A stretch of DNA of 18,627 bases from Candidatus Krumholzibacteriota bacterium. GTDB lineage: Bacteria; Krumholzibacteriota; Krumholzibacteriia; LZORAL124-64-63. The notes below the pieces were generated by a model that was not told the origin of the DNA, ran no database searches, and worked only from the letters and a program-made list of their open reading frames with translations. A program made the translations under genes and the position numbers. Shown here in pieces: positions 1 through 16,256 of the stretch. Numbering within the stretch: position 1 is the stretch's first letter; each line of letters begins with the position of its first letter. The stretch spans positions 1 through 18,627 of the forward strand of contig JBDLKA010000071.1 of the NCBI GenBank assembly GCA_039714075.1, read 5' to 3'.

Positions 1-3000
1 GTCAGCTTGCCCACCCGTTTCTGATCCCCGGCCCCGAACATGTAGAAATACACTCCCGAAGCTGTGACCTGCCCGCCGGCGTCGCGCCCGTCCCAAACCT
101 GTTTGTGGCTGCCGTTCACGTAAGGACTCTCGTCCAGCAACCTGCGCACCAACCGCCCCTGCAGATCGTAGATGTCGAGCGATACATCCATGGCCCGGGG
201 CAGCTCGAACGCGATCGTGGTCGAGGGATTGAACGGGTTGGGATGGGCGTAGACCGCCACCTGCCGGATACCAGGGATGCCCGGTGCATCGCTGACGCCA
301 TCGGCGCCCAGCCAGACCAGCAGGAAATTCAGTAAATCGGCCCGGGGTGAGAACACGCTGGCGCTCTTGGCGGATCCAGGGGCCAGGCCGCTCACCCGCT
401 CAAGGTCAAACGGCAGCACGGTGGTGCGGTTGCCCAGGATCTGGTCGTCTACGGTCAGCACGGCAGCGTAGGTTCCGCCGGGCGTTCCTTCCGGATCCAG
501 GGTGGCGCTGGTCTGGCCGGTAAGGCCCGGGCTGATGGCGTCGAACCTCCTGACCTCGGGACAACCGGAGTCCACCAGCCATTGGACGCCCTCCGGCAGT
601 ATGCCGTTACCGGGCACGGGCGAAATCTGAAGATCCCAAACGCCTCCGTTGAATTCGGAGATATCATCGTGTTGGAGCCCGACACCCAACCGGTCCATCA
701 GAAGGTATCCATCATTTCCACCTTTTGGGCCAACTAGGCCGGTGCACAGGCCGTCGCCGGCAAACAGAGCCTGTTTCCCGCCCGTGTCGAGCCAGTCGGA
801 AACGAGCTTGGCGTCATTGGATTCGGGCTCTCCCGAAAGAGTGACATGGCTCCGGGTCCCCGTGGTCAGGAGCATGGTCTGGTAATCGGCCAGGTGGGCG
901 ACCTTGGCGATGGCGCCGAGACCTATGCCATAGCCATGTAGTTGGTAGCGTACCGCCATGGCATCGTAATCCACACCCCGCTCGAAACCCAGTTCATGCA
1001 AGGCGTCATACCATACGGCCGCCGCTTCGGGATCACCCGTACTGTCGTAAAAAAGAAGGGAGGGTTGGGTGAACTGCCCGGGCACCGGTTGCGTGAGCGT
1101 GGGCAAAGCGCGAGCCTCGACCCTGCGGGGATAGGAAGAGCCGGGGGTGAAGTCCAGCACGGCCGTGGTGTCCGGCGGCCAGACCGAAGTGCGCAGGTCG
1201 CCGGCGAGGTCGCCGGTGGCGGTGATGTAGTAGCGCAACCGGTCGCCGGGGAAAAACCAGCCGGTATCCGGCAGGTCGAAGGACCACTGGTTTTCCAGCG
1301 GGGTGCCGGATCCATTATCAATCATGCCGCCGCTGATCATGCCGCGCAGAATTCCCTGGCCGTTCGGCGCGCCGGGTCGCACCGAGTCAAAGGTGGGATT
1401 GCACTCCATCACCCAGTGCAGGGACGGCGGATCGGGCACGGTGGCGCCTTGGCGCAAGGGGGTCACCTGGGCGGTCAGGGAATCGCCGATGGTTGGAACG
1501 CCCAGGACGCTTTTTATGCCCGCCATGTCCACCCGGCACCAATTCTCGACGAGGTTTGTCGGGTCAAAAGTTTCCTGTTCGGGAAAGGCATCCCCGAAAA
1601 GGTTGTTTTCCTTGACCAGGATCTCCGGCCCGTCGGGCGCCCAGACCCTCATGGTCACATTATCGAAATAGGGCGCGGGCGTGCCGTTGAGGCCGGTCCA
1701 GTTCCACATCCAACCCATTTCGTTGACGCCCAGGGCAATCTGGACCCACTGACGATCGGCCACCAGCAGGTCGCTCACGGGTTCGATGTGCCGCTTGTAA
1801 TCAGGGTCGCCGTAGAACACGAAATTGCGGCTTGTCCAAGAGGCGAGTTCGAGATCGGCGGGGTCGGGGCTGGCTGTCGACCGCACATGCCACAAATAGA
1901 ACACGCCGGGCGAATCCGCGAACAGTTGCTCGTGCACGTAGACATCAAAAGACAGCTCGGCTCCGTCGGTGCCGGGCAGCCAGGGCAAAGGCGGCGAAAC
2001 TACCTGGTTTTCAATGAACCAACCACTTGGGTCGTTTTCCAACAGTCCACCGGTATTGTTGACGATCCAGCCACCGGGATCGTAGCACCAGGTGATGCAT
2101 GGAGTGCCGCCGGTTCCGGGCACCACCACGCCGTCGTCGACGAAGTTCACCTGATAGGTGTTGTTGTCCTGGCAGGGGTCGATGTCGCCCAGATCGTTGC
2201 GCAGGTTGGTGAAATCCCCGACGGCCAAGGGTTCGGCGTGGGTCCAGTTGACGGGGCTGCCGGGCTCGAAATCGTCGAAGGTGATCAGGGAATCGTCGAA
2301 GAATACCGCGATGTCGTCGATGCGGGCCGCGCCGTGACCGGGTCCGGGCGTCTTGCAGTCCACGTCGTCATAGGCGCCGTCGGACCAGACGCGCCACCAC
2401 AAGCGCACCTCGTCGCCGTCTGGGCCGGAGTACTCAGCCGGGGAAAGCACGGTGGTGAAATCCAGAGTGTCCACGGCGCCGCCGGTACCTGTCCAGGTGG
2501 CCAGCATGTCCGGGTATTCTCCCCTTTGGACGAAAAATTCAAGAAAATCCCAATCCGCGTCGGTGAGATCGTAATTCATGAACCCGGTCAGCCGGACTGT
2601 GACCGGTTGGGAGGTATCGGCCACCGCGTGCCGCCATTCGAGGTCGTCGAACCAATTGTGACCGTAGCCCCCGATGGTGTCGGGCGGATCACAGGCGGGA
2701 ATGGTCTCATCGACGCAGTTCATGGCGAAGTTGCCGGGACCGTGTCCGCCCAGGTTTTCGGCCCAGTAGGTGGAAATGTGCCAGTGGTTGCCCGAGGGGG
2801 TGTTCAGGTCCTCGTGGGTCCAGCCCTGCCAGTCGGGCAGGCCGCCGGCGGTTTCGAAGCTGCCGTCCAAACTGCCGGGGCCGCCCATGATGTAGAGGGT
2901 GTCGACCAGGGCTTTGGTCGACGGGGCCGGGAATCGAACCCACGGCGTGGGGCCGTCATGGGGCTGGGGTCCGCCAACAATGGGATCGGGCCGGGCATGG

Positions 3001-3056
3001 GCGGACTGGGCGAGAAAAGCTGATAATACGAGGGAAATAACGGCTACGTATCGCAT
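1..3056 (-). CDS. Large secreted protein (>1018 aa, 3' end beyond window) with Sec signal peptide and C-terminal FlgD-Ig / T9SS type A-like sorting domain
   Basis: Translated by hand from ATG at 3056 (GAGG just upstream): MRYVAVISLVLSAFLAQSAHA-RPDP..., open without a stop to the window edge. It ends ...AHPNPFNPSTTIAFELPRAMDVSLDIYDLQGRLVRRL...VWDGRDAGGQVTASGVYFYMF...KRVGKL, the typical FlgD-Ig C-terminal motif. Not in the ORF track because the stop lies outside the window. Confidence 0.92.
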   Translation of the reverse strand, partial: MRYVAVISLVLSAFLAQSAHARPDPIVGGPQPHDGPTPWVRFPAPSTKALVDTLYIMGGPGSLDGSFETAGGLPDWQGWTHEDLNTPSGNHWHISTYWAENLGGHGPGNFAMNCVDETIPACDPPDTIGGYGHNWFDDLEWRHAVADTSQPVTVRLTGFMNYDLTDADWDFLEFFVQRGEYPDMLATWTGTGGAVDTLDFTTVLSPAEYSGPDGDEVRLWWRVWSDGAYDDVDCKTPGPGHGAARIDDIAVFFDDSLITFDDFEPGSPVNWTHAEPLAVGDFTNLRNDLGDIDPCQDNNTYQVNFVDDGVVVPGTGGTPCITWCYDPGGWIVNNTGGLLENDPSGWFIENQVVSPPLPWLPGTDGAELSFDVYVHEQLFADSPGVFYLWHVRSTASPDPADLELASWTSRNFVFYGDPDYKRHIEPVSDLLVADRQWVQIALGVNEMGWMWNWTGLNGTPAPYFDNVTMRVWAPDGPEILVKENNLFGDAFPEQETFDPTNLVENWCRVDMAGIKSVLGVPTIGDSLTAQVTPLRQGATVPDPPSLHWVMECNPTFDSVRPGAPNGQGILRGMISGGMIDNGSGTPLENQWSFDLPDTGWFFPGDRLRYYITATGDLAGDLRTSVWPPDTTAVLDFTPGSSYPRRVEARALPTLTQPVPGQFTQPSLLFYDSTGDPEAAAVWYDALHELGFERGVDYDAMAVRYQLHGYGIGLGAIAKVAHLADYQTMLLTTGTRSHVTLSGEPESNDAKLVSDWLDTGGKQALFAGDGLCTGLVGPKGGNDGYLLMDRLGVGLQHDDISEFNGGVWDLQISPVPGNGILPEGVQWLVDSGCPEVRRFDAISPGLTGQTSATLDPEGTPGGTYAAVLTVDDQILGNRTTVLPFDLERVSGLAPGSAKSASVFSPRADLLNFLLVWLGADGVSDAPGIPGIRQVAVYAHPNPFNPSTTIAFELPRAMDVSLDIYDLQGRLVRRLLDESPYVNGSHKQVWDGRDAGGQVTASGVYFYMFGAGDQKRVGKL

Positions 3057-3209
3057 GGCGACCTCTTTTTTTGAGCGAAACAGAGGGATTGCGAAACAAA
3101 TTAGTAGTCAATCGTAGTTGGATATCAGTGTACGAAATTGGGGTGGAAAAATCCACCAAATAGGTATGGTATTAATTAAACAGCACAGTTGTAATCCAGA
3201 ATATTTATT

Positions 3210-4538
3210 TCAATCTCCGGTTTTTTCCAAAAGCAAAAGCGTCTCGATATGGCTGGTCTGAGGGAACATATCCAATACCTGCAACCGCTTGGCCTGATAG
3301 CCCTCGGCCGTGAAAGCGGCCGCGTCGCGGGCCAGGGTGGCCGGATCGCAGCTCATGTACAGCAGGTGGCGCGGCTTGATGTCGAGCAGGGTTTTGACCC
3401 CGTCTTTGCCCAGACCGGTGCGCGGGGGATCCACCAGGCAGAAACTCGCGTCCCACAGCGCGGGGGGCGCCAGATCGGGCTGGGCCAGGATCTTGGCCAA
3501 ACGACCGGAATACACCCTTGCCTTGTCCTTGGCCGCTTCACTGCGTTTGACGTTGTTTTCGGCGTCGCGGCAGCCACTCTGATCGCTGTCGATGGCCACC
3601 ACCTTCTCGAACAGGTCCGCCAGCGCCAGGGTGAACAGACCCACGCCGCAGAACAGATCCCCCAGCATGACTCCCAGCTTGCCGTCGTCCTTCAATTCGG
3701 TGATCCAGGTCCGGATCACGGACAGCGCCTCTTCGGTCATGGCGTGGTTGCCCTGGAAAAAGCTCTGGGCGCCCACGCGGTACTTGTGCCCGGCGATCTC
3801 GTGGATCAGATAGTCGCGGCCCCACAGGGGCAGATTGTTGAACAGCAGGCCTTTGCAGCCAGGCGCCGGGGGCTCGCCCTCGGGCAGCGCGGCCAGGACC
3901 TTGCGCATGACCTTCAGGCGCTGGGACGGTCCGAAGACGGAAACCAGCCAACCGCCGTGGCCGTCCATCCGGACGACGATCTGTTCGGCCGGCGGCAGCA
4001 TGCGCAGCCAAGGCAGGATGTCGCGGTTGAACTGTTCGGGCATCACCGCGCAGTTTTCGAAGGGCACCACCTCGTGGGTGCCGCGGCGCATCAGGCCGTA
4101 ATGATTGACGGGATTGGAAAAAACGCGGATCCGGTTACGGTAGCCCAGTTCCACTCCGGCCTCCGGGCCGGTCAGCAGTTCGGAGACATCCATCTTGCCC
4201 AGGCGTCCGAAGCAGTCGGTGACGATGGCGGCCTTGGCGCGGCGCTGGTGTTCCGGATCAAGATGCATCAGATCGCATCCCCCGCATTGCCCGTAATAGG
4301 GGCAGGGCGGGTCCTGGCGGCCGGTTCCCGGATCCAGGATTTCTGCCACGGTCGCGCGGGCGAATCCCCGGCGGCGTTCTTTCACCGCGACCCGCACCCG
4401 GTCTCCGGGGGCGGTCAGGGGTACGAAAATCGCTTCGCCCTCGTGACGGGCCAGTCCATCGCCGCCGGTGACCAGCTTTTCGATGGTGACTTCGAGGACT
4501 TCGGATTCCGCTGATTTGTCTGGATGCTTGTCATTCAT
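3210..4538 (-). CDS. rlmD: 23S rRNA (uracil-C5)-methyltransferase, RlmD/RumA family (TRAM + Fe-S + SAM domain)
   Basis: TRAM domain (IEKLVTGGDGLAR...FVPLTAPGD), CPYYGQCGGC plus a later Cys (Fe-S ligands), YRNR, SFFQGN, DLFCGVG, DPPRTG, YMSCDPATLARD, DMFPQTSHIE. Confidence 0.93.
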   Translation of the reverse strand: MNDKHPDKSAESEVLEVTIEKLVTGGDGLARHEGEAIFVPLTAPGDRVRVAVKERRRGFARATVAEILDPGTGRQDPPCPYYGQCGGCDLMHLDPEHQRRAKAAIVTDCFGRLGKMDVSELLTGPEAGVELGYRNRIRVFSNPVNHYGLMRRGTHEVVPFENCAVMPEQFNRDILPWLRMLPPAEQIVVRMDGHGGWLVSVFGPSQRLKVMRKVLAALPEGEPPAPGCKGLLFNNLPLWGRDYLIHEIAGHKYRVGAQSFFQGNHAMTEEALSVIRTWITELKDDGKLGVMLGDLFCGVGLFTLALADLFEKVVAIDSDQSGCRDAENNVKRSEAAKDKARVYSGRLAKILAQPDLAPPALWDASFCLVDPPRTGLGKDGVKTLLDIKPRHLLYMSCDPATLARDAAAFTAEGYQAKRLQVLDMFPQTSHIETLLLLEKTGD

Positions 4539-4646
4539 GGTCCGCTTAAACTAGCATGGGGGTGGTCCCGGGGCCAGAAATCTGAATGGCCGGGTCCGAT
4601 TGGAAGAGTTTGCCCGATGGCCGGCAGCCCCAAAGGAACGGATTCC

Positions 4647-5321
4647 GTGGCGGGTATCAAATTGAAAAGCATCCCGGTGTTGGGTATCTTCGCCTCTGTT
4701 TTGGCGGGAGTGCTCCTGACCGGGTGTACCCCCAAGCGGGTCTTGCGGAGGGACCCCGCCCCTGTGCCCGTGCCGGAGGCGGAACCGGCCTCGGCTCCGG
4801 TCCAGGAGGAATACGCGTCCGAAAGACCGCCGGGTGAACCGGATTTGAGTCTGCCGGAGCCGGAATTCCGGGGTGCCACGGGAACATCGTCATTGGAAAC
4901 GTCCTCCGCCAACCCGCCGGGCACGCCCGCCGCGCAGCCCCCGTCGGGATCATCCCTGGGCCTGGCGGCCGCGGCTCTGGCCGAAAAGCAATTGGGCAAA
5001 CCGTACCAGTGGGGTGCTTCGGGACCCGAAAAGTTCGATTGCAGCGGCCTGGTCATGTACGTCTTTGACAATCTGGGGGTCAAACTGCCCCGGGTCTCGG
5101 GCCAGCAGGCCTACGCGGGGGTCCACGTGGACCGCGAGGATCTGCAGCGTGGCGACCTGGTGTTTTTCAAGTTGACCGGCTCCCGGATCGACCACGTGGG
5201 CATCTATGTGGGCCACAGCAAATTCATTCACGCTCCGCGCAAGCACGTTCCTGTGAGCACGGAAAGTCTGAACAATTCCTATTGGCGGCGGCGATTCAAG
5301 GGGGGCCGGCGCCTGAAATGA
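4647..5321 (+). CDS. NlpC/P60 (C40) cell-wall peptidase lipoprotein with Pro/Glu-rich linker
   Basis: Probable GTG start at 4647 after AAAGGA (ATG 4617 is an alternative). Lipobox LLTG-C. C-terminal GKPYQWGASGPEKFDCSGL...LPRVS...GDLVFF...HVGIYVG...FIHAP with Cys-His-His triad. Confidence 0.92.
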   Translation: MAGIKLKSIPVLGIFASVLAGVLLTGCTPKRVLRRDPAPVPVPEAEPASAPVQEEYASERPPGEPDLSLPEPEFRGATGTSSLETSSANPPGTPAAQPPSGSSLGLAAAALAEKQLGKPYQWGASGPEKFDCSGLVMYVFDNLGVKLPRVSGQQAYAGVHVDREDLQRGDLVFFKLTGSRIDHVGIYVGHSKFIHAPRKHVPVSTESLNNSYWRRRFKGGRRLK

Positions 5322-6820
5322 AGGATTCGTTTTTGACCGTCCGCAATTCCCAAAAAAGAGATAGCCGGTCGGCCGGACCAGGCCCCCTTGCCGTGGCCCT
5401 GGTACTGGGGATGGTGCTGTTCGCCATGTGCGGCGGCCCGGCGCGGGCCCAGAACCCGCCCGGAAACGGCTTCGGGACCACAGCCCAGGCAGCGGAAGAT
5501 TCCCTGGACGCCGGCACGGAAAGTTACTGGGGCCCGGTGCCCGCCCATCACGACAGCGTTTCGGCCCTGCTGGTGAAGCGCTCGCGGGGTGCCTGGGAAA
5601 CCGCGGTGATGGTGCCCTACTGGGTCGTCGGCGTTCCCTTCCGCGTCGTGTACCTGGGGATCGACCAGACCGTCATCGGCATGGACAAACTGGGGCTGTT
5701 CGGCGCGGCCGCGGAACATCCGGGCATCAAGGGTCCGTTCGACACCTACCTGATGCCCGTGGTTTCCATCGGCGACGTGGAGGGCTTCACCCTGGGCCTG
5801 GATGTCACCCGCTTCGATTTTCTGGGTCCGGGCAACATGCTGTTCATCCAGGGGTCCCGGTCCACCCGCAAGGCCGACGAACTGTCCGGCGGCACCCTGT
5901 TCCACCTGGGAAAAAGCTGGACCGTGCAGGCCGGCGGCGGGGTCGAGGAAAAGAACCTGATCCGGTATTACGGGTTGGGGCCCGACTCGATCTACGGCGA
6001 CCTGTCCTACTATCATCGCACCACCACCTGGGGCGGACTCGAGGTGGAAAAGAATGTCGGCAGGAAAATCGGGCTGGAACTGCGCTCCTATTTTTCCCAG
6101 GTCGAGGCCGTCGAGCCGGTCTACGAAATCCATCGGTCCCTGGCCAAGATCCACTCCGGAAACATCCCCTTCGGATACCCCGGCCAATCCAACGGCTGGA
6201 CCATGCGCCTGGCCCTGTACCGCGACAACGCCGACCAGCGCGGCCGGCCCCGCAGCGGCGGGTTCCAGTCGCTGGGCGTTTCGCTTTTCGAGGCCAGCGA
6301 CGGCAGCCGGCTGCGGTACCTCACCTATCACGCCAACCTGGAAAAATACTTATCCCTCTGGCACACCGACCGGACCCTGGCCCTTCGGGCTTTCGTCAAT
6401 CGCATCTCCAATTCCGGCCCGGTGGAGATTCCGTTCAACCGTTTGGTGACCTTTCAGCGCCCCGACGAACTGCGCGGTTTCAATTCACTGCGCTTCTACG
6501 GGATGGGCTCGGTGGGCATGTCGGCGGAGTACCGCTGGCCCGCCTGGGTGGCCCGCGGCCGTAACGACATGGGGGTGGACGCCTATGTCTTTTCGGATAT
6601 CGGCCAGGTGTATGACCGGACGGCGGAAATCAGCATGGATCATATGAAGTTCACCGGCGGGGCGGGCCTGCGCCTGGTGAATTCGGACCGGGGTTTCGCC
6701 GCCCGGTTCGAAGTGGGGTTCAGCAGCGAACAGACGGTCGTCAGGCTGAAGTTCAGCCAGACGTTCCAGTACGACCCGAAAGGCATTCTCTATGGCAAGA
6801 ACCCGACCAAGGTTTACTGA
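5318..6820 (+). CDS. Omp85 (BamA/TamA superfamily) outer-membrane beta-barrel protein without apparent POTRA domains
   Basis: ATG at 5318 overlaps the upstream TGA (ATGA). Signal peptide ending PARA-Q. Alternating beta-strand pattern. Omp85 hallmarks: LRGF (L6 VRGY-like, DELRGFNSLRFYG), SAEYRWP, FSDIGQVY, GGAGLRL. Confidence 0.85.
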   Translation: MKDSFLTVRNSQKRDSRSAGPGPLAVALVLGMVLFAMCGGPARAQNPPGNGFGTTAQAAEDSLDAGTESYWGPVPAHHDSVSALLVKRSRGAWETAVMVPYWVVGVPFRVVYLGIDQTVIGMDKLGLFGAAAEHPGIKGPFDTYLMPVVSIGDVEGFTLGLDVTRFDFLGPGNMLFIQGSRSTRKADELSGGTLFHLGKSWTVQAGGGVEEKNLIRYYGLGPDSIYGDLSYYHRTTTWGGLEVEKNVGRKIGLELRSYFSQVEAVEPVYEIHRSLAKIHSGNIPFGYPGQSNGWTMRLALYRDNADQRGRPRSGGFQSLGVSLFEASDGSRLRYLTYHANLEKYLSLWHTDRTLALRAFVNRISNSGPVEIPFNRLVTFQRPDELRGFNSLRFYGMGSVGMSAEYRWPAWVARGRNDMGVDAYVFSDIGQVYDRTAEISMDHMKFTGGAGLRLVNSDRGFAARFEVGFSSEQTVVRLKFSQTFQYDPKGILYGKNPTKVY

Positions 6821-8534
6821 AAAACTATCTTGGTTGGCCCTGCTGGGCCTGGTGTTCGCCTTGCCGGCGGTCCCGGGGCCGGCCTTTGCCCGGGAACCCC
6901 TGCGTGACGAACCGGTGGTCTGGTACGCGGAAGACCGGGAACCGATTCCCGTCCCGGAATTCCAGGAGCCGGGCCTGGTGCCCTACGCGGTCGACTCGTT
7001 CGTGGGCCGGCCGTTTTCCCGTTTCTGGCACCCGGGCCGTTTTTTCCGCTGGGTGGGCACCGGCGATCGGGCACCCGAAGCGGGGGACATCAATTCCCTG
7101 GACGAAGTGGTCAACTCGACCTGGTTCACCAACCGGATCGGTCTGGCGCCGCTGACCCGGGCCGAGCTTGCCGAAGGTTCCGCCCACGGGCGCGATCTGG
7201 CCGCCGGCCCCGACCGCAGTGCTCCGTGGACCATCGTCGGCGCCAAGACCGCCGGGGTGACGCCCGGTTTCCGGATCAAGGACGCCAAAGGCGATGTCTG
7301 GCTGCTGAAGTTCGATCCCCCGTCCCATCCGGGCATGACCATCCGGTCGGGCGTGGTGACCAGCCTGCTGTTTCACGCCATCGGTTTCCATGTGCCGGTG
7401 GACCGGTTGGTGACATTCTCCCGCGCGGACCTGGTGGTGGGCGAGGGCGCCATGATGCGCCTGCAGCGCGTGGGCGAGGTGCCCATGACCGAGGCGAATC
7501 TTGATTCGGTCCTCACGGCCACCGGCTCCATCTTCGGCGGCGAGTACCATGCCCTGGCCAGCCGGTATCTGGACGGGAAACCCCTCGGACCGTTCGACGA
7601 CCAGGGAATGCGCCGGGACGATCCCAACGATACGATCCATCACCAGGACCGCCGCGAACTGAGGGCCCTGCAGGTGTTCGGGGCCTGGGTCAACCACTTC
7701 GACACCAAGATGCACAACTCGCTGGACATGTACGAGGGCGAACCCGGGCAAGGTCACGTCCGGCATTACCTGATCGATTTCGCTTCCACGCTGGGCGCCT
7801 TCGGCGATACGCCGGTCAAGCGGTTCGGTTTTGAATACGGGTTTGATGTTTTTCCCATCACGGGCCGCACCCTGACCCTTGGCCTGGTGGAGGATGACTG
7901 GGTTCCCCTGGAACGGCCCGAGGGTCTGGACGAAGTGGGTCTGTTCGACGTGGCCAACTTCGAAGCCGACGGATGGAAACCCGATCTGCCCCACAGCGCC
8001 ATGGCCGACATGACCGCCCGGGATGGTTACTGGGCGGCGAAAATCCTGTCGGCCTTCACCGACGAAGACCTGCGCCTCATCGTCGGGCAGGGTCACTATC
8101 AGAATCCGGCCGCCGTGGATTTCCTGGTTGAGACCCTGGCCGGCCGCAGGGACAAGATCGTGCGGCACTGGTTCGGGAAAATTCCTCCCCTCGATTTTTT
8201 CACCCTGACGGCTGCGGGCCTGGCCTTCCACGATCTGGCCGTCGAAAGAGGATATGCCGACACGGACAGTCCCCGGTATCGGTACCGGATGTCCACCGTG
8301 AACAGCGACCGTGGACAGGACGACGAAGGCTGGACTCCCTGGCGGGAGACAACCGCTACTTTGGTGCCCCTGTTCGATGAAGCCGGGCGTTTGGCGGCCG
8401 ACGTTCCGCCGGGCGGAGCCGAGTACCCGTTCCTGGCCGTCGAGGTGCAGGTCGACCACGGCGCCGGGTGGAGCCGCTCGACCACCGTTTACGGAGCCTA
8501 TGCCTCGGGCCGCCTGGTGGCCCTGGATCGATGA
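6792..8534 (+). CDS. Exported protein with atypical protein-kinase-like fold (HipA/PI3K/CotH-like motif spacing), 580 aa
   Basis: Signal peptide (LSWLALLGLVFALPAVPGPAFA-R). Gly-rich GAKTAGVTPG, beta3-like WLLK173FD, catalytic-loop-like NHFD304TKMHN309 (DxKxxN), Mg-binding-like YLID329F. Overlaps the Omp85 gene by 29 nt. The CDS is secure; the kinase call is motif-based. Confidence 0.75.
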   Translation: MARTRPRFTEKLSWLALLGLVFALPAVPGPAFAREPLRDEPVVWYAEDREPIPVPEFQEPGLVPYAVDSFVGRPFSRFWHPGRFFRWVGTGDRAPEAGDINSLDEVVNSTWFTNRIGLAPLTRAELAEGSAHGRDLAAGPDRSAPWTIVGAKTAGVTPGFRIKDAKGDVWLLKFDPPSHPGMTIRSGVVTSLLFHAIGFHVPVDRLVTFSRADLVVGEGAMMRLQRVGEVPMTEANLDSVLTATGSIFGGEYHALASRYLDGKPLGPFDDQGMRRDDPNDTIHHQDRRELRALQVFGAWVNHFDTKMHNSLDMYEGEPGQGHVRHYLIDFASTLGAFGDTPVKRFGFEYGFDVFPITGRTLTLGLVEDDWVPLERPEGLDEVGLFDVANFEADGWKPDLPHSAMADMTARDGYWAAKILSAFTDEDLRLIVGQGHYQNPAAVDFLVETLAGRRDKIVRHWFGKIPPLDFFTLTAAGLAFHDLAVERGYADTDSPRYRYRMSTVNSDRGQDDEGWTPWRETTATLVPLFDEAGRLAADVPPGGAEYPFLAVEVQVDHGAGWSRSTTVYGAYASGRLVALDR

Positions 8535-8547
8535 ATAAAGGAAGCCG

Positions 8548-9927
8548 ATGAATCACGATCATGACACCGGCCGGCCGACCATCCTGGTCCGGACCCTGCG
8601 CCTGTTCGCCCCGGTCCGCGAGGGCGAAGGCGGCACGGTGCTGCTGATGGCCCTGAACGTGTTTCTGCTGTTGACCGCCTACTACATCATCAAGCCCGTG
8701 CGCGAGGCGCTGATTCTTTCGGAGTGGGGGGCGGAGGCCAAGATCTACGCCTCGGCCGGACAGGCGCTCCTGTTGCTGGGCGTGATCCCTCTTTACAGCC
8801 GCCTGGCCGACCGGATGAACGTGCGCCGCCTCATCGCCACGGTGCTGGTGTTTTTCGCCGCCTGCCTGGTGGCTTTCTACCTGTTGGCCCTGATCCGGGT
8901 CCCGCTGGGGATTCCCTTCTATCTGTGGGTGGGAATTTTCAACATGATGGTGGTGGCCCAGTTCTGGTCTTTCGCCAACGACTACTACACCGAAGAGCAG
9001 GGCAAGCGGCTGTTCGCCATCATCGGGTTCGGCATGTCCGCCGGCGCCGTGTTCGGCGGGTTCATCACCAAGAAACTGATCAACCCCCTGGGGCTTTACC
9101 AACTGATGCTGCTGTCGGCCGCCCTGCTGATCGTCAGTCTTGTGCTGACGGTGGCCGCGGCCAATCGCCGGAAACGAGCCGGCCGGGTTTCGACGGATCG
9201 CCCCCCAGTGGAAGAAGACGGGATGGAAGGGCCCGGCGGGTTCGCCCTGGTCCTGAAGAACCGCTACCTGCTGCTGATCGCGGTGATGATGATCCTGGCG
9301 AATCTGGTCAACACCACCGGCGAATACATCCTGGGGGCCAAGGTCAAGGACGGGAGCGAGCAGGCGGTGGCTGAAGTCGTCCGGACCTCCGGCATGAGCG
9401 ACGTTGCTTTCAGCGCCGCCGTGGTCGAGCGGCAGGCCGAAGTGGGCCGGTCCATCGGCGATTTCTATGCCGGGTTCTTCGCGATCGTGAACCTGGTCGG
9501 ATTGCTGACCCAGCTTTTCCTGGTGTCGCGCATCGTTCGCTGGCTGGGAGTGAACCGGGCCCTGATGATCCTGCCCCTGGTGGCCACGGGCGGTTACATC
9601 CTGATGGCCCTGTTCCCGGTTCTGGGGGTGGCCCGCTGGTCCAAGACCGCCGAGAATTCCACCGACTATTCCCTGCAGAACACCGTCCGCAACATGCTCT
9701 TTTTGCCCACCACGCGGGCCGAGAAATTCAAGGCCAAGCAGGCCATCGATGCTTTCTTTGTCCGCGCGGGGGATGTTTTTGCCGCGCTTCTTGTCCTGGG
9801 CGGCACCACGCTTGTTGGTTTAGCTCCTCGTGGATTTGCTCTTGTTAATGTTGGGATAGCTCTTCTCTGGGTGGTGCTGGCCTGGTTCATTGGTCGGCGG
9901 TACCTCCTCTTGTCCCGGGCTGGATAA
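8548..9927 (+). CDS. Npt/Tlc-type NTP/NDP exchange transporter (AAA family ATP:ADP antiporter homologue, MFS-like fold)
   Basis: About 12 hydrophobic segments. Family motifs YYIIKPVREAL, FYLWVGIFN...QFWSFAND...KRLF, DYSLQNTVRNMLFLP...KFKAKQAID..FVRAGD. AAAGGA RBS; starts 13 nt after the kinase-like gene. Confidence 0.88.
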   Translation: MNHDHDTGRPTILVRTLRLFAPVREGEGGTVLLMALNVFLLLTAYYIIKPVREALILSEWGAEAKIYASAGQALLLLGVIPLYSRLADRMNVRRLIATVLVFFAACLVAFYLLALIRVPLGIPFYLWVGIFNMMVVAQFWSFANDYYTEEQGKRLFAIIGFGMSAGAVFGGFITKKLINPLGLYQLMLLSAALLIVSLVLTVAAANRRKRAGRVSTDRPPVEEDGMEGPGGFALVLKNRYLLLIAVMMILANLVNTTGEYILGAKVKDGSEQAVAEVVRTSGMSDVAFSAAVVERQAEVGRSIGDFYAGFFAIVNLVGLLTQLFLVSRIVRWLGVNRALMILPLVATGGYILMALFPVLGVARWSKTAENSTDYSLQNTVRNMLFLPTTRAEKFKAKQAIDAFFVRAGDVFAALLVLGGTTLVGLAPRGFALVNVGIALLWVVLAWFIGRRYLLLSRAG

Positions 9928-10073
9928 CGCTTCCGCCAAGCCCCCTTCCCGTTATGAATAATCCGGGATGTCCTCGTCGCGGCCCTTCGGGCCGCTTCCT
10001 GCGGATTACCCGGATTATTCATAACGGGAAGGAAGCTTGGCACAAGGGTTGCCCTTCCCGGGACAAGAGGAGG
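9903..10073. repeat. Long imperfect palindrome (element 1) spanning the transporter stop codon, with conserved hairpin core
   Basis: Perfect arms 9944-9967/10009-10032 (24 bp), 9935-9941/10035-10041 (7 bp) and 9903-9919/10057-10073 (17 bp, left arm inside the CDS), all on the same axis. Inner hairpin GCGGCCC-TTC-GGGCCGC. Confidence 0.93.
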
Positions 10074-10312
10074 ATCACGGGTCAAAGAAACAGGTGCCTC
10101 CCAAGAGATTGAACCCCGAACCAAACAAGCGCACAAGCTGAGCAAAAACAACAGGTTGTGTTGTTTGTAGGGGTTGAGCGCAGGGGAAAAGAAGGAACTT
10201 TTAAGATCCCCCTGCGGCAAAAAAACGAAAAAGGGCGGATGACGAGCGGCCAATTTCCTGCCGGGCGGGGAAGAAATGCCGCGGGAATCGGAACAGAACA
10301 CGGAGGATGACG

Positions 10313-10813
10313 ATGGCTCCCGAATGCGCAGTTGCAACCATGGCCCAGGCCGGAAAATACCTTTCGTTCCGGCTGGATGACGAGGAATACGGCCTGGAAA
10401 TTCTCAAGGTCCAGGAAATCGTCAGCGCTGCCGGTATCAACGAATTTCCCCGGAATCCTGAAAATGTGCGGGGCCGGATCCGTTTGCGGAGCCGGGATAT
10501 TCCCGTGATCGACATGCGGGGGGTGTTCGGGTTGAAGGCGGTGCTGGAATCGGAAAAGAGCTGCATCATCATCGCCCAGGTTTCCCTGGGGAGTGAATTG
10601 ATCACCATGGGTCTGCTGGTGGACGAGGTTTGCGACGTGCTGAACATCGCCGCGGAGGAAATCCAGTTTCCCCCCACCTGGGCCGGCGGCATGGAAGGCT
10701 CCGACTTCATCAACGGTTTGGGAAAGCTGGAGGACAGGGACGTCATCCTGCTGGAAAGCGAAAAAATCTTCAGCGAGGAAGAACTCAAGGCCGTCGTCCT
10801 GTGGGACGATTAG
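10313..10813 (+). CDS. cheW: Chemotaxis adaptor CheW
   Basis: GKYLSFRLDDEEYGLEILKVQEI...IPVIDMR..FG...CIII...MGLLVDEVCDVLNI...FINGLGK. GGAGG RBS 6 nt before ATG 10313. Confidence 0.92.
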   Translation: MAPECAVATMAQAGKYLSFRLDDEEYGLEILKVQEIVSAAGINEFPRNPENVRGRIRLRSRDIPVIDMRGVFGLKAVLESEKSCIIIAQVSLGSELITMGLLVDEVCDVLNIAAEEIQFPPTWAGGMEGSDFINGLGKLEDRDVILLESEKIFSEEELKAVVLWDD

Positions 10814-10862
10814 AATCCGGTAAGGTAATTACCGTCAACCCATTAAAGAAACGGGTCTTGTT

Positions 10863-11732
10863 GTGACAGTCCGCAACGACATTCTGGCCAAGGTGCGCAC
10901 GATTCCCTCCATGCCTTCGGCCGTGGTCAAGCTCAAGCAATACCTGAGCGATCCCGACGTCAGCTTCGACGAGCTGGCGAAGGTCATAGAATTCGATCCC
11001 GGCTTGACGGCGAACCTGTTGCAGTTGGCCAATTCGGCCTACTTCGGCTGGTCGGGCCACATCAAGACCGTGAAGGAAGCCGTCACCCGGCTGGGCACCA
11101 ACCGCATCTTCCAGATGGTGTTGTGCATGTCGGTGGCTCCCCTGGTGCGCAAACCGGTCAAGGGTTACGACATGGGGTCGAACGGCCTGTGGCACCACTC
11201 CATCGCCACGGCCATCTGCGCCGAACAGCTTGCCGGGACCCTGGATTTTTCCAATCCCGAAGAGGCGTTCACCGCGGGCCTGCTCCACGACATGGGCAAG
11301 ATCCTGCTGGGAACGTTCGTGGAGATCGACGACGAACCCATCAAGAACCTGGTCGAGAACGAAAGCCTGTCCTTCAACGAGGCCGAGCGCCGGGTGCTGG
11401 GAATCGATCACGCCGAAGCGGCGGCCGAACTGCTGCAGTACTGGAAACTGCCGGAGAACGTGGTAGCCGCGGCCAGATGGCATCACGATCCCGACCAGGC
11501 CGATGAAAAACACCGTGACATCGTGGACCTGGTCCATGTGGCGGATATTCTCTGCATCAGGATGGGCTGGGGCATCGGAACCGACGGCCCGTTGTACTGC
11601 CTGAACAACGAAGTGGAAGAACGGCTGGGAGTGGACGCCCAGGTGGAAGACATCGTGACCGACAAGGTGGGCGCCGCCATCGACGATCTTCAGGGGATTC
11701 TGCAGGGCAAACCGGAGCCCGTGCTCAGCTGA
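10863..11732 (+). CDS. Stand-alone HDOD domain protein
   Basis: IPSMPSAVVKL, DPGLTANLLQLANSAYFG, LWHHSIATA, AFTAGLLHDMGK, ERRVLGIDHAE, WKLPE, WHHDP. Confidence 0.92.
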   Translation: MTVRNDILAKVRTIPSMPSAVVKLKQYLSDPDVSFDELAKVIEFDPGLTANLLQLANSAYFGWSGHIKTVKEAVTRLGTNRIFQMVLCMSVAPLVRKPVKGYDMGSNGLWHHSIATAICAEQLAGTLDFSNPEEAFTAGLLHDMGKILLGTFVEIDDEPIKNLVENESLSFNEAERRVLGIDHAEAAAELLQYWKLPENVVAAARWHHDPDQADEKHRDIVDLVHVADILCIRMGWGIGTDGPLYCLNNEVEERLGVDAQVEDIVTDKVGAAIDDLQGILQGKPEPVLS

Positions 11733-11744
11733 CCGGACCGGCGG

Positions 11745-12974
11745 CTACTCGCCGCCGATTTTCACCACCACCGCCTCATTCACCGCTTCACGGACGGCTT
11801 CGTCCAATTCCATTTTCGAGGAAAACTTCAGAAGGTCCATGGCCCGGGCGGTCAGTATGGGCTTGGGCGAGCGGATGGAGCAGCAGTCCCGGTAGGGCAG
11901 GATCGACGTGCCGAAGGCCCCGATCTTCTTGGACCAGGCGGTGATCTCCATCTTGTCCATGCCGATCAACGGCCGCAGGATGGGCAGTTCCACATCCGAA
12001 CTGATGGCGCCCAGGTTGTGCATGGTCTGGCTGGCCACCTGGCCCAGGCTGTCGCCGGTGACCAGGCCCAGGCAGCTGTTGCGACGTGCCAGGCGGACCG
12101 CAGTTTTCACCATGAACCGGCGGAACATGACCATGTCGTAGCTGTCGGAAATCACCCCGATGGCTCTCATCTCGTAGGGAACCACCGGTACCAGGAACAG
12201 CTTCAACGGCACCGGCGAAAACCGCGCCAGGATTTCCACCAGTTCCTTGATCTTGTCGACATCGGCTTCGGCGACGTTGCGGCCCGCATAGAAGTGGACG
12301 AAGTCGGGCCGGCTGCCGCGCCGCATCATCAGCCAGGCGGCCACGGGCGAATCGATGCCGCCGGACAACAGGACCATGGTGCGCCCGCTCGAACCGAAGG
12401 GCAGCCCGCCCCAGGCGGGTTCCTTGCCGGTGAAAACCAGTACGTTCTCTTTCAGGACCAGCACGTTCACCGTAAGTTCGGGCCGGCTCATTTTTCCCGG
12501 CAGCCCCGTGCACTGGTGCACGGCCGCGCCCACGATGCGGCTGACCTCCGGCGACTTCAGGCCGAAGCCGCGGTCGCTGCGGCGGGTCTCGACCTTGAAG
12601 TTGGCCGCCGTGCCCTGGTTTTCGCGCGCCAGCTCACAGGCTGTCCGGCAGATTCCGTCCAGAACGGGTTCGCGGTCGTTTTCCAGGTCGTCGCGCAGGG
12701 CGGGATCGATCTCGCCGCGCGGCACCGTCACCACCGGCGACATCCACTGTAGACCGAACACGTTCCGCAGTTTGGCCGTCACCTCCGGGGCGCGGGCCGG
12801 ATCGGTCAGGTAGACCAGCAGCCGGCTTTCCACGTGCCTGATCGCCTCGACCGGTTCGCCCTTGAGTGCCGCGTTCATGTTGTTGATCAGCTTGCGCAAA
12901 AACATCTTGCGGTTGCGGCCCTTCAGGGCGATTTCCGCGTAGGCGCAGGCGATGATGGGGGTGGCCAGGGCCAT
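11745..12974 (-). CDS. thiI: tRNA 4-thiouridine synthase ThiI (THUMP + PP-loop, no rhodanese domain)
   Basis: YAEIALKGRNR, THUMP (FKVETRRSD), GGLP.GSSG, LLSGGIDSPVA, TGDSLGQVASQT, RPLIGMDK, SILPYRDCC. Start placed at ATG 12974 because of an upstream GGAG; 13010 is an alternative. Confidence 0.93.
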   Translation of the reverse strand: MALATPIIACAYAEIALKGRNRKMFLRKLINNMNAALKGEPVEAIRHVESRLLVYLTDPARAPEVTAKLRNVFGLQWMSPVVTVPRGEIDPALRDDLENDREPVLDGICRTACELARENQGTAANFKVETRRSDRGFGLKSPEVSRIVGAAVHQCTGLPGKMSRPELTVNVLVLKENVLVFTGKEPAWGGLPFGSSGRTMVLLSGGIDSPVAAWLMMRRGSRPDFVHFYAGRNVAEADVDKIKELVEILARFSPVPLKLFLVPVVPYEMRAIGVISDSYDMVMFRRFMVKTAVRLARRNSCLGLVTGDSLGQVASQTMHNLGAISSDVELPILRPLIGMDKMEITAWSKKIGAFGTSILPYRDCCSIRSPKPILTARAMDLLKFSSKMELDEAVREAVNEAVVVKIGGE

Positions 12975-13106
12975 GACGACTCCGGGGGCTTGATTCTCCG
13001 AGTGATCCATGTATTCTGCTGTCTGCTGTTCCCATGCAGAATCTAACAGGAGTGGTTTGGGGCGCAAGAGCGCGTTACCGGCCGTTAGCGGCAAAAGGAC
13101 ATTACG

Positions 13107-14402
13107 ATGGTCGAAAGCGGCGGCATCAAGCTGGACATTTCGGGGCTGGACGGATTCCTGCGGCCCGGCGAGTTGGAGGCCATGGCCCCGCGGGTGGCGG
13201 CCGCCGCGGCCACGCTGGAAAACGGGACCTGCCCCGGCGCGGATTTCCTGGGCTGGCTCGATCTGCCCGCGCGCATCTCCGACGCCGACCTGACCGCGAT
13301 CGAATCCGCGGCCGACCGGGCCCGCCGGGACACCGCCAGTTACGTGGTGATCGGCATCGGCGGCTCTTACCTCGGCGCGCGGGCCGTCCTGGAGGCGCTG
13401 GGCGGCCCGGCTTCCGGCTGTCCCGAAATCCTTTTCGCCGGGACGGGATTGTGCTCGGCCACCCTGGACCGGTTGCTGACCCGGGTGCGGAAGCGGGATT
13501 TTCGCCTGTGCGTGATCTCGAAATCCGGCACAACCCTGGAACCCGCGGTTGCCTTCCGGCTGCTGCGCGGCGAGCTGGAAAAAAAATACGGTCGGGCCGG
13601 GACAGCGGAACGGATCACCGCCGTGACCGACGCCAAGCGGGGCGCGCTACGCGGGCTGGCCGAGGCCGAAGGTTTCGAAACCCACGTCATTCCCGATGAT
13701 GTGGGCGGACGATTTTCCGTCCTCACTCCGGTGGGCCTGGTGCCCTTGGCTGTCGCGGGCGTGGATATCCGGGGACTGGTGGCCGGCGCCCGGGCCATGC
13801 GCGATGCCTGCCTTTCCAGCGACCTGACCGCCAATCCCGCCCACCTCTACGCCGCGGCCCGCAATCTTCTTTACGAAAAGGGTTTTCTCAACGAGGTCAT
13901 GAGCACTTTCCACGGCGATCTGCAGATGTTGCAGGAGTGGTGGAAGCAGCTTTTCGGCGAGAGCGAGGGGAAAAACGGGCAGGGCATCTTTCCGGCCTCG
14001 ACGGTTTTCACCACCGATCTGCACAGCCTGGGCCAGTACATCCAGGACGGCCGCCGCAACCTTCAGGAAACCTTCCTGTGCGTGCGGAGCGGGGTCGGCG
14101 GCCTGACGGTGCCGGGCCAGGACCCGGGCGATCTGGACGGCCTCAACTACCTGGGCGGCCGGAGCCTGGACGATATCAACTGGAAGGCCTACCAGGGGAC
14201 CAGGCAGGCGCATCTGGCCGGGGGAGTTCCCTGCACGAGTTTCGAGGTGGAAACCCTGACGCCCCAGGCAGTTGGCGGGCTGCTCTACCTGTTTGAAAAG
14301 GCCGTGGCGGTGAGCGGTTTGTTGTTGGGAGTCAACCCCTTCGACCAACCGGGGGTGGAAACCTACAAGAAGGAAATGTTCCGCCTGCTGGGTAAATCCT
14401 GA
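13107..14402 (+). CDS. pgi: Glucose-6-phosphate isomerase
   Basis: VIGIGGSYLG, ISKSGTTLEP, DDVGGRFSVLTPVGL, EWWKQLFGESEGK, TDLHSLGQYIQDG, NPFDQPGVETYK. Confidence 0.97.
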   Translation: MVESGGIKLDISGLDGFLRPGELEAMAPRVAAAAATLENGTCPGADFLGWLDLPARISDADLTAIESAADRARRDTASYVVIGIGGSYLGARAVLEALGGPASGCPEILFAGTGLCSATLDRLLTRVRKRDFRLCVISKSGTTLEPAVAFRLLRGELEKKYGRAGTAERITAVTDAKRGALRGLAEAEGFETHVIPDDVGGRFSVLTPVGLVPLAVAGVDIRGLVAGARAMRDACLSSDLTANPAHLYAAARNLLYEKGFLNEVMSTFHGDLQMLQEWWKQLFGESEGKNGQGIFPASTVFTTDLHSLGQYIQDGRRNLQETFLCVRSGVGGLTVPGQDPGDLDGLNYLGGRSLDDINWKAYQGTRQAHLAGGVPCTSFEVETLTPQAVGGLLYLFEKAVAVSGLLLGVNPFDQPGVETYKKEMFRLLGKS

Positions 14403-14430
14403 ACCATACAGGTCTTGATTCACTCGCGGT

Positions 14431-14459
14431 TTGATCTCCCATCAATGACGTTATATTTT
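14431..14459 (+). promoter_or_regulatory. Candidate sigma70 promoter for the lipoprotein gene with overlapping TTGAT-N5-ATCAA palindrome
   Basis: TTGATC (14431-14436), 17 nt, TATTTT (14454-14459). Inverted repeat TTGAT/ATCAA at 14431-14445. Confidence 0.35.
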
Positions 14460-14534
14460 CGACAGGTGATGCGATAATCCCCGGGACCGGATTCCGGTTT
14501 CCCGATGTTTTTCCCCCAGATTGAGGAGAAACCC

Positions 14535-15323
14535 GTGAAGAAGTCAGCCCTTGTCTTCACAGTGATGGCCGTCGTCCTGATGATCGCGGTCGCCGGTTGC
14601 GGCGATAAGAAGGAAACGGCCGAAAGCGCGCCCGCCCCCGCCGCGGATGCGACCACGGCCCAGGCTCCCGCCCAGGCCGCCAACCCCGACATGTGGGAAG
14701 GCACCGTTCTGGAAACCATGAACTCCGGTGGGTACACCTACGTCCACCTCGACACCGGCAGCGAAAAGATCTGGGCCGCCGGTCCGGAAGCCACCGTTTC
14801 GGTCGGCCAGAAAATCGTGATGGACAAGGGCATGGCCATGGGGGAATTCCACGCCAAGTCCCTGGACCGCACGTTCGATCAGATCTACTTCGTCGGCTCC
14901 ATCAAGGGCGAGGGCGAAGCGCCCACCCAGGGAGCGCCCCACGGCGACATGGGTGGAATGAGCTCCCCCGAAGCCGCGTCCCACAGCACCGTGGATAAGG
15001 CCGACATCACTGGTGTCGCCAAGGCCGCCGACGGCTATACGGTCGAGGAGATCTTCACCAAGAGCGCCGAACTTTCCGGCAAGAACGTGAAGGTGCGCGG
15101 CCAGGTCGTGAAGTTCACGCCCAACATCATGGGCACGAACTGGGTGCACATCCAGGACGGCACCGGCAGTGGGCCGACCTCCGATCTTACCGTGACTACC
15201 AGTGCCGTCGTGGCCAACGGGGACATGGTTGTTGTCGAGGGGGCGCTGACGGTCAATAAAGACTTCGGTGCCGGGTACAAGTATGACGCCATTATCGAAG
15301 GTGCTACCGTCACCAAGGAGTAG
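14535..15323 (+). CDS. Lipoprotein with NrfJ-like and OB-fold domains
   Basis: GTG start after GAGGAG. Lipobox IAVAG-C. First domain GTVLETMNSGGYTYV...WAAGP. His/Met linker (PHGDMGGM). Second domain KVRGQVVK..PNIMGTNWVHIQDGTG...KDFGAGYKY. Confidence 0.8.
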   Translation: MKKSALVFTVMAVVLMIAVAGCGDKKETAESAPAPAADATTAQAPAQAANPDMWEGTVLETMNSGGYTYVHLDTGSEKIWAAGPEATVSVGQKIVMDKGMAMGEFHAKSLDRTFDQIYFVGSIKGEGEAPTQGAPHGDMGGMSSPEAASHSTVDKADITGVAKAADGYTVEEIFTKSAELSGKNVKVRGQVVKFTPNIMGTNWVHIQDGTGSGPTSDLTVTTSAVVANGDMVVVEGALTVNKDFGAGYKYDAIIEGATVTKE

Positions 15324-15466
15324 ACCGGAGGCCGGGTGTGACTTGACTCGGCTTAGCGGATGCGTCCACAACAAAAAGGCCCGGCATAAGCCGGGCCTTT
15401 TTGTTGCGAACACGTCCGATGCACCTCGTTCAAGCCGCACCCGGCCTCCGGTCTACTCCTTGGTGA
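15310..15466. repeat. Long imperfect palindrome (element 3) mirroring the lipoprotein 3' end, centred on a terminator hairpin
   Basis: 37-bp arms 15310-15346 and 15430-15466 (2 mismatches), including the stop codon. Axis within 1 nt of the inner 17-bp stem. Confidence 0.93.
15369..15406. terminator. Bidirectional Rho-independent terminator
   Basis: CAACAAAAAGGCCCGGC-ATAA-GCCGGGCCTTTTTGTTG, 45 nt after the lipoprotein stop, with a T-tract on both strands. Confidence 0.88.
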
Positions 15467-15547
15467 AGCACCGCCCTTGATGATGCCGGCATTTGCAACA
15501 TGGCGCACCCAAGGCTCGACCGGTGGCGTCACTTTGACATTCAATGT

Positions 15548-15575
15548 AAAAATCCGAGGTTGGCCTCGGGTTTTT
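15548..15575. terminator. Second bidirectional terminator-like hairpin
   Basis: AAAAATCCGAGG-TTGG-CCTCGGGTTTTT. Confidence 0.6.
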
Positions 15576-15613
15576 GGTTGAATAATCAAAACAGGGTCTT
15601 CATGGGGGTATGA

Positions 15614-15657
15614 GAAAACCGGCGCTTCATCCCATTAAGGGGAAGCGCCGGTTGTTC
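15614..15657 (-). terminator. Rho-independent terminator of the globin gene
   Basis: 12-bp stem AACCGGCGCTTC/GAAGCGCCGGTT (15617-15628/15642-15653) ending in TTTTCTC on the minus strand, just after the globin stop. Confidence 0.7.
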
Positions 15658-15672
15658 GGGCGAGAGATTCGA

Positions 15673-16218
15673 TTACTTGTAGATCACCATGTCCTTCATG
15701 GAGACCAGGATGCAGACGACCTCGTTGATTTCATTTTCGCCGTGGCCGAGGTTCTTCATGGCCTGGCCGACATCGTGGCCGGCCGAGAGGAAGTCGGCTT
15801 CGGTGAACTGGTGGCGGGCATGGGCGGCCTTCATGTTCTGGCCGTGGTAGCTTTCGGTGCCTCCGGTGCCCGCAGCGACGAAATCGGCCACGCTCTTGGC
15901 CAGCTTATCGCCGTCCACGTACTTCATCATCAGCCGGAAATCCTCATTCTCCTGGTGGAGACGCACGATTTCCTTGGTCAGGGCGTGGATTTTCTCGTAT
16001 CCGCCCAGGCGGTCGTACAATGATTTTTCGGCCTGGCGGGCGCTCCGCGCATCCGCGGATTCCTCGCACATGGTCACCAAACCCTGCATGGCCGCCGAGG
16101 ACGAGGGTTGCTCTTTGGGGTGCTCGCCAGGGTGCTCATTCCCGCCGGCGATCGCCAAAACCGGGATAAATACCAGCAAAACAGCCATTTTGACCAGGAT
16201 CGACACTGAATTCTTCAT
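15673..16218 (-). CDS. Group I truncated (2/2) haemoglobin with N-terminal signal peptide
   Basis: ATG 16218 after AAGGAG. Signal MKNSVSILVKMAVLLVFIPVLAIA-G. Globin motifs SLYDRLGG, AAGTGG...Y.G..M..AH (proximal His F8), FTEADF. Confidence 0.88.
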   Translation of the reverse strand: MKNSVSILVKMAVLLVFIPVLAIAGGNEHPGEHPKEQPSSSAAMQGLVTMCEESADARSARQAEKSLYDRLGGYEKIHALTKEIVRLHQENEDFRLMMKYVDGDKLAKSVADFVAAGTGGTESYHGQNMKAAHARHQFTEADFLSAGHDVGQAMKNLGHGENEINEVVCILVSMKDMVIYK

Positions 16219-16256
16219 GCTAAAGACTCCTTCTGGGGATTGAAAGTGATGTTCAT

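Follow-up and report, generated by a model that had tools for sequence, protein, structure and literature searches.

The locus described here raises the question of whether an exported protein with a kinase fold, and a glycine in the place of the alphaC glutamate, can be a live enzyme, and of what such an enzyme would do among the genes that surround it. The window, i.e. the whole stretch of DNA analysed, covers 18,627 nucleotides (nt) from a Candidatus Krumholzibacteriota bacterium (GenBank assembly GCA_039714075.1, contig JBDLKA010000071.1, positions 1 to 18,627 of the forward strand). The gene of interest encodes a protein of 580 residues, designated K, and stands between the genes of an Omp85-family barrel and of a carrier of the NTT family; these flanking genes, absent from an earlier note on the same DNA, hold most of the interest of the locus. 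K represents a real, unannotated exported kinase family within a conserved envelope module, and in the query's subclade the alphaC acid appears, from the aligned sequences, to have moved from position 187 to D204. The fold, motif conservation, purifying selection, gene linkage and the 187/204 pattern were all established computationally.

The earlier note had listed kinase-like motifs in K and proposed a family alignment and a structure comparison as checks, both of which were carried out. Every motif was found where the note had placed it (residues 150-159, K173, 304-309, D329 and the helix peptide 180-198). Alignment A1 is made up of the query, 30 rows from the best 120 scored candidates and, from the best 150 cluster matches, 119 rows of nearly full length; its rows are mostly 29-38% identical to the query. 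The four key residues are kept in 145-148 of its 150 rows (K173 in 148, D304 in 147, N309 in 145, D329 in 148) and position 306 is K or R in 133. The second lysine of the Gly-rich loop, K152, is kept in 140 rows and in 160 of 161 genomic copies, a set from which one duplicate and partial copies were dropped; K173 is found in 151 and D329 in all 161 of these copies. Within the family signature, D280, R288 and R291 are invariant and H284 is present in 149 of the 150 rows. The conservation of these motifs is more than chance.

The AlphaFold2 model of K (pLDDT, the predicted local distance difference test, 94.8; pTM, the predicted template modelling score, 0.93) is kinase-like and displays a helix at 183-197 after a strand at 169-173. 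Foldseek matched it to actin-fragmin kinase, CotH, HipT, MavQ and CtkA (best E 6.7e-4). VIA-align ranked CtkA first (Z 15.1, root-mean-square deviation 4.2, 236 residues aligned), followed by Fam20C (Z 14.0), PI4K2 (Z 13.0) and CotH (Z 12.2). A wide structure search left the order of the kinase matches unchanged, and the top 42 VIA-align rows and top 14 wide-search rows are all kinases of this CtkA/HipA/Fam20/PI4K2/CotH branch, with its bilobal fold. The N-terminal window is hydrophobic in 145 of the 150 A1 rows, 60 of which hold a lipobox-like motif according to a crude script. Searches of Pfam and NCBIfam at E 0.1 gave no family for K, and the K profile gave no match among PDB sequences. The atypical secreted kinase family suggested by the earlier note is supported by fold and conservation, and lies near CtkA, Fam20, PI4K2 and CotH.

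The usual alphaC Glu, which pairs with the beta3 Lys and is not universal in the kinase superfamily, is lacking in K, as the note had seen. Its position is residue 187, 11 residues before the invariant G198, the same spacing as for the alphaC Glu of HipA, and it is occupied by Gly in the query. Position 187 holds E in 75, D in 31, G in 33 and other residues in 11 of the A1 rows; the 161 copies give E 72, D 36, G 35, A 17 and T 1. Gly is found in 29 of the 33 A1 rows that are at least 42% identical to the query. As E and D prevail across the rows and G occurs mainly in the nearest rows of the query, G187 marks, in these alignments, a subclade and not the whole K family. The missing Glu is therefore real in K but not family-wide, which corrects the note on this point.

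A second position follows the first. In 281 rows pooled from loci and cluster representatives, two sets that may share near-relatives, an acid is present at 187 in 213 (about three quarters), and 65 of the 68 rows losing it carry an acid at 204 (187 only, 200; 204 only, 65; both, 13; neither, 3). With an acid at 187, column 204 mostly holds Asn; without one, it holds Asp or Glu. Among the loci, an acid at 204 is found in 52 of the 53 without the alphaC acid versus 5 of the 108 keeping it; among the cluster representatives the corresponding figures are 12 of 14 versus 8 of 105. In both data sets column 204 ranks first of 540 for the gain of an acid with loss at 187. The 187-204 pair ranks 30 of 68,635 by sequence-weighted mutual information with average product correction, and 204 scores highest with 187, 191 and 255; from kinase topology, these partners would cluster behind the nucleotide site. 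Because 65 of 68 rows losing the acid at 187 have one at 204, a relocated acid is favoured over the unusual activation offered by the note, and D204 may well do the job of the alphaC Glu. With the acid relocated in this way, Gly at 187 would be no mark of a dead enzyme. The existence of rows with both acids suggests that D204 came first and then allowed the loss at 187. Trees built without the trait columns require at least 6 changes between acid and non-acid at 187, and 15 on the 281-row tree. Two results weigh against the relocated acid. The tree-aware test found 9 independent pairs, with 3.9 changing the same way and 0.1 the opposite way (median p 0.125, not significant), and a single origin of the Gly and Ala groups was not rejected by the approximately unbiased test (p 0.138). 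A link between Lys306 and loss at 187 was also considered and dropped: it was seen in raw counts and vanished in independent pairs (p 1).

POMK offers a precedent, being active although Gly stands in the place of its alphaC Glu (PMC5142810). All 35 G187 loci keep K152, K173, H302, D304, N309 and D329, and the mean pairwise identity is 52% within the clade of the query. Since the motifs are kept in all 35 and the ratio of nonsynonymous to synonymous substitution rates of the kinase core is 0.12-0.15 versus five same-genus relatives, the G187 copies are not decaying. They could nevertheless be pseudokinases that bind nucleotide and serve as a gate, scaffold or sensor for the barrel with no phosphate transfer, which we consider quite unlikely. 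Positions 181 and 187 are both non-acidic in 34 of the 35 loci and DFG has become DFA in 27, and Fam20A owes its inactivity to the loss of a single Glu that lies five residues ahead of the ion-pair Glu (PMC4421793). The catalytic D, N and D are, in contrast, invariant in the 35 loci, D204 is gained in 34, and no second member of the K family, which a pseudokinase might regulate, was found in the source genome (92% complete). The strongest coupling of position 181 is with C-lobe residue 437 (the top pair by mutual information), which suggests a structural role for 181; for the same reason, a reading of E181 as a metal ligand like E306 of Fam20C was down-weighted.

Some kinase folds perform other chemistry, as in SelO and SidJ. 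The fold of K might likewise transfer AMP, or run an ATPase cycle driving transport or assembly at the barrel, and the second conserved lysine K152, the large family-specific basic/acidic insert at 274-291 and the clade of 10 loci with Glu instead of the beta3 Lys would fit such a use. K however retains the canonical D-x-K/R-x-x-N and DFG-like motifs, its best structural matches are phosphotransferases without exception and phosphatase genes recur as neighbours (47 of 118 K loci), so that this alternative is very unlikely. Phosphate transfer by K is judged quite probable.

The most constant neighbour of K is the barrel, which lies directly upstream in 148 of the 153 copies preceded by 800 or more bases of sequence. 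In the window its gene has a probable start at ATG 5318 and overlaps the start of K by 29 nt. Its LRGF motif is at residues 397-400 and FSDIG at 437-441, and the loop-6 (L/M)RG(F/W/Y) and FxDxG motifs are conserved among relatives. Within its mature length of about 450 residues, no POTRA or other N-terminal domain was matched by Pfam, a sequence-based result; Omp85 barrel motifs without POTRA would place it among the noNterm Omp85 proteins. A single-sequence model of the barrel (pLDDT 31) was not used. Prediction of the K-barrel complex gave a score of 0.47 versus 0.00 for the best control, with contacts agreeing to at least 78% between runs and a partner pLDDT of at least 85. In the calibration, the mark was reached by 116 of 157 solved and 2 of 215 mismatched pairs, and at scores up to 0.60 by 18 solved pairs and both mismatches. 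The prediction lends weak support to a complex, as a pass of this kind is usually wrong if the proposed pair was not already likely. Docking of K on the barrel is judged fairly probable.

The same arrangement could be that of an exporter and its cargo, the barrel delivering K, like a two-partner or PlpD-type passenger, to the cell surface or into the medium, with ATP taken from outside and the NTT and phosphatases salvaging nucleotides or phosphate inward. The order of barrel then passenger at the 148 loci, enzyme-barrel fusions in a related family and the FN3 tail, which fits a surface protein, agree with this, as does the fact that the characterised NTTs import nucleotides (PMC5381601). The barrel however shows no POTRA match and keeps the loop-6 and FxDxG motifs, which form the lid lock of Omp85 proteins (PMC11358297). 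Neither the POTRA pair of a TpsB protein nor a two-partner secretion domain in the cargo was matched in Pfam or NCBIfam, and the 60 lipoprotein-like members among 150 also speak against a passenger. Free ATP outside the cell is scarce for free-living bacteria. Surface export is on balance unlikely.

The third gene of the module scores 53.3 bits against PF03219 (cut-off 21) and matches a plastid ADP,ATP carrier (9j3j, E 3.7e-5). Within 6 kb of K, an NTT gene is found at 61 of 118 copies, a PAP2-family gene at 26 and a metallophosphoesterase gene at 23; these 118 are the copies with 4 kb on both sides, the neighbour profiles were built from the same loci and one representative per phosphatase cluster was confirmed by Pfam. 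By our own arithmetic, the chance expectation of NTT proximity is about 1% (3 NTT genes in 4.06 Mb). An NTT is near 19 of the 23 G187 loci. The NTT and phosphatase genes could still be incidental neighbours, inherited by descent beside a unit made of K and its barrel, given that the K loci come from three related samplings in which kin are not independent and that 57 of the 118 have no NTT within 6 kb. The carrier gene however recurs across distinct clades of the K tree, both as a single-domain and as a long fusion form, in at least four arrangements and variously before K, after it or on the opposite strand, which makes incidental proximity highly improbable.

In the mechanism favoured here, K would be an ATP-dependent phosphotransferase of the CtkA/Fam20/PI4K2 branch, exported by Sec and held in the envelope at its partner Omp85 barrel, where it would phosphorylate an envelope acceptor. 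The NTT would swap cytoplasmic ATP for the ADP made outside, across the inner membrane, and exported phosphatases, where present, would reverse the phosphorylation; in the query's subclade, the acid would have shifted from 187 in alphaC to D204 at the start of beta4 with the enzyme staying live. An active envelope kinase at a partner barrel, fed ATP by the carrier, is in our judgement an even proposition, and export of ATP by the NTT, taken as a step of its own, stands at equal odds. As for the substrate, the head group of an outer-membrane lipid or glycolipid is put forward with slightly less than even confidence, in view of the PI4K2-like structure and the PAP2 neighbours; an envelope protein is a possible, less favoured acceptor and a glycan a doubtful one. 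Several observations weigh against this mechanism. The carrier scores 33.6 against TIGR00769 (cut-off 387), 57 of the 118 loci have no nearby NTT, nucleotide transport was not seen for one divergent NTT (PMC5381601) and the phosphatase genes of the source genome sit on other contigs.

In that genome (G000), a long NTT fusion with a cNMP-binding domain at its end occurs among two-component genes (C16:18139-21300). Six further loci (C93:8380-9675, C4:41074-41940, C60:16014-16802, C168:241-2247, C31:21859-23001 and C123:8694-9836) together hold a third NTT, two PAP2-family proteins, a metallophosphoesterase and two more small Omp85-type barrels. Another recurrent neighbour of the K module, often adjoining a long NTT fusion, is a membrane-anchored Hanks-type Ser/Thr kinase (a cluster of 20 loci, among them L042, L062, L064, L067, L071, L072, L077, L080, L090, L104 and L111).

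A possible single-chain counterpart is found in the 'Metallo' Omp85 proteins, whose barrels are similar to the noNterm ones and for which the word kinase is absent from the main text of Heinz and Lithgow 2014 (PMC4104836). A motif of this family retrieved 120 metagenome stretches, 80 of them with flanks (L179-L258, alignment A3). Of 60 complete fused proteins, 51 match the barrel profile of the K loci and 24 of these also match the phosphoesterase profile. Between the PF00149 phosphoesterase and the barrel lies a kinase-like domain with a Gly-rich loop, an invariant R-x3-K and a HipA-type catalytic loop, which matches no Pfam family and CtkA weakly (E 0.31), and whose nearest Atlas clusters are mostly from Bacteroidota and Gemmatimonadota. 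In A3 the residue at its apparent beta3 position is Arg, and its apparent alphaC position lacks a conserved acid. A search with the K profile misses this domain; hhalign compares the two with E 0.0008, a probability of 24% and a score of 36.3, versus no more than 25.0 for any of 20 controls made by reversal or shuffling, which relates the middle domain weakly to K. The two catalytic loops do not align in register and the global mode found nothing, hence no orthology is claimed. A phosphatase, a kinase-like domain and a barrel thus meet twice, as separate genes and in one chain, by descent or convergence. An NTT is near only 2 of the 80 fused-family loci, which adds to the points against the mechanism. 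No match to the fused-family motif was found in viral contigs, and look-ups returned no earlier note of the alphaC acid change or of the fusion.

The periplasm is usually treated as free of ATP. If the favoured reading is true, it hints that some bacteria phosphorylate outside the cytoplasm. The K module would be a candidate answer to the problem of an ATP-free periplasm and also to the role of NTT carriers in free-living bacteria, where they are widespread and obscure in function, a question left open in PMC5381601. It would also offer a function for two orphan Omp85 subfamilies, and the natural series of an acid at 187, at both sites and at 204 suits the study of active-site migration in kinases. 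As a tentative generalization, many uncultured Gram-negatives could run a regulated cycle of envelope phosphorylation, in which ATP exported by an NTT is used by a kinase docked beneath its own Omp85 barrel to phosphorylate an outer-membrane lipid, glycan or protein, and exported phosphatases undo the modification; 'Metallo-Omp85' would be the single-chain form with an unrecognised kinase domain, and the alphaC acid would have migrated to beta4 more than once.

Table 1. Features of the K module, with their positions in the window.
Feature	Position	Strand	Basis
POTRA-less Omp85-family outer-membrane barrel, LRGF and FSDIG motifs	5282..6820	+	PF01103 E 3.4e-10; BamA profile E 2.8e-13
K, exported atypical kinase-fold protein, 580 aa	6792..8534	+	open reading frame, motifs, model; without Pfam/NCBIfam family
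Predicted Sec signal peptide (signal peptidase I), residues 1-33: basic N-region, hydrophobic helix, AFA site	6792..6890	+	by eye; modelled helix 11-26
Gly-rich loop GAKTAGVTPG, residues 150-159, including second conserved lysine K152	7239..7268	+	conservation
beta3 lysine K173, in WLLKFD 170-175	7308..7310	+	conservation
alphaC helix 183-197	7338..7382	+	model and alignment; G187 codon 7350-7352
D204, start of beta4, proposed substitute acid	7401..7403	+	187/204 pattern
Family signature R274-x2-D-P-N-D-x3-H-x2-R-R-E-L-R291	7611..7664	+	conservation
Catalytic loop D304-x-K306-x-x-N309, DTKMHN 304-309	7701..7718	+	conservation
Metal-binding D329-F330-A331, within YLIDF 326-330; DFG in most relatives	7776..7784	+	conservation
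C-terminal FN3-like beta-sandwich, residues 464-576	8181..8519	+	Z 7-8.3 versus FN3 domains
Single-domain NTT/TLC (ATP/ADP carrier family) inner-membrane transporter	8548..9927	+	PF03219; 13 nt after K stop

The remaining genes of the window are diverse. An NlpC/P60 peptidase gene (4524-5321, PF00877 E 4e-33) ends in a stop that overlaps the probable barrel start (ATGA 5318-5321), for which reason it may share a transcript with the barrel; it stands beside the K module in only 7 close-family loci. On the reverse strand are encoded a large exported protein of more than 1,018 residues (3-3056), with a C-terminal FlgD-Ig/Por-tail-like domain and otherwise no Pfam match, an AAA/STAND-like ATPase with a C-terminal winged-helix domain (16325-18280) and, downstream of it, a truncated globin with an N-terminal hydrophobic segment (15673-16284). 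The segments 3210-4538, 10307-14402 and 14505-15323 hold genes for a TRAM/RNA m5U methyltransferase, CheW, an HDOD protein, ThiI, phosphoglucose isomerase and an unannotated lipoprotein-like protein. A promoter and terminator scan returned nothing useful.

Relatives of K number 4,119 among 8,000 scored candidates; a separate search gave 2,605 clusters at 50% identity (E up to 0.001), and the named close relatives belong to Candidatus Krumholzibacteria and similar uncultured bacteria. K is present in 22 of 41 genomes of relatives, in 60 of 151 genomes of its phylum and in 40 of 151 of a second phylum sample; a search of the GTDB collection gave 583 stretches with K, and Acidobacteriota make up most of the best 79. 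The context counts rest on 159 fetched K regions and not on all matches. No K relative was found in viral contigs. Longer forms amount to 8 proteins among 8,000 candidates and none is a K-barrel fusion, which is weak evidence on this point; in one, K without the FN3 tail is fused to a PAP2 domain (P0235, 782 residues), and six carry an unannotated C-terminal region of about 600 residues (P0271-P0276). The 10 copies with Glu for the beta3 Lys (L055, L070, two in L074, L075, L085, L088, L096, L107 and L119) mostly keep K152 and the catalytic motifs, with no NTT within the available DNA around them, and may be either a lysine shift like that of WNK/POMK or true pseudokinases. Barrel and kinase genes are both interrupted at one locus (L039, G011:C50), the second copy in that genome being intact and distant, and tandem or doubled kinase genes or barrel-kinase units occur at L065, L066, L106, L116 and L074. 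No account of the K module was found in a literature search that left out most subscription papers and supplements, where a table of kinase-like families could hold it.

Among known systems, CtkA (PDB 3akk) and HipA/HipT (PF07804, PF20613) are the closest in structure and share the motif order. K differs from them by its 13% identity, signal peptide, FN3 tail, barrel partner and lack of an adjacent antitoxin gene: HipA toxins are cytoplasmic and beside an antitoxin, whereas the neighbours of K are a barrel and a carrier, and K has no HipA_C or HipA_2 match at E 0.1 and a PDB sequence match of just E 1.3. Fam20C and Fam20B share the fold (Z 13-14, including the N-terminal segment) and work outside the cytosol, whereas K is bacterial, cysteine-free, tied to an Omp85 barrel, 9-10% identical and without a PF06702 match; the nearest named Atlas cluster bears the name Fam20C on 22% of its members at a score of 0.80, which is a lead only. 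POMK, the precedent given above for Gly at alphaC, is not among the listed fold matches of K. Type II PI4 kinases (Z 12-13) and MavQ of Legionella (Z 10.8) resemble K, and the PAP2 neighbours would fit a lipid substrate; they act on cytosolic membrane faces, unlike the exported K, which has no PF00454 match. CotH, which acts on spore-coat proteins (PMC7821199), is another bacterial atypical kinase fold, from which K differs by its gene context and the absence of a PF08757 match. SEAE1 was set aside as a possible K family, being by its description non-secreted and without a barrel partner (bioRxiv 10.64898/2026.09.18.752743). The barrel of K is POTRA-less like the noNterm and Metallo Omp85 proteins (PMC4104836), the latter differing by the kinase-like domain in the same chain. 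The carrier exceeds the cut-off of its family, whose characterised members import, whereas an export role is proposed here. K thus falls outside each of the named kinase families by their own defining features, and yet resembles the CtkA, Fam20, PI4K2 and CotH kinases.

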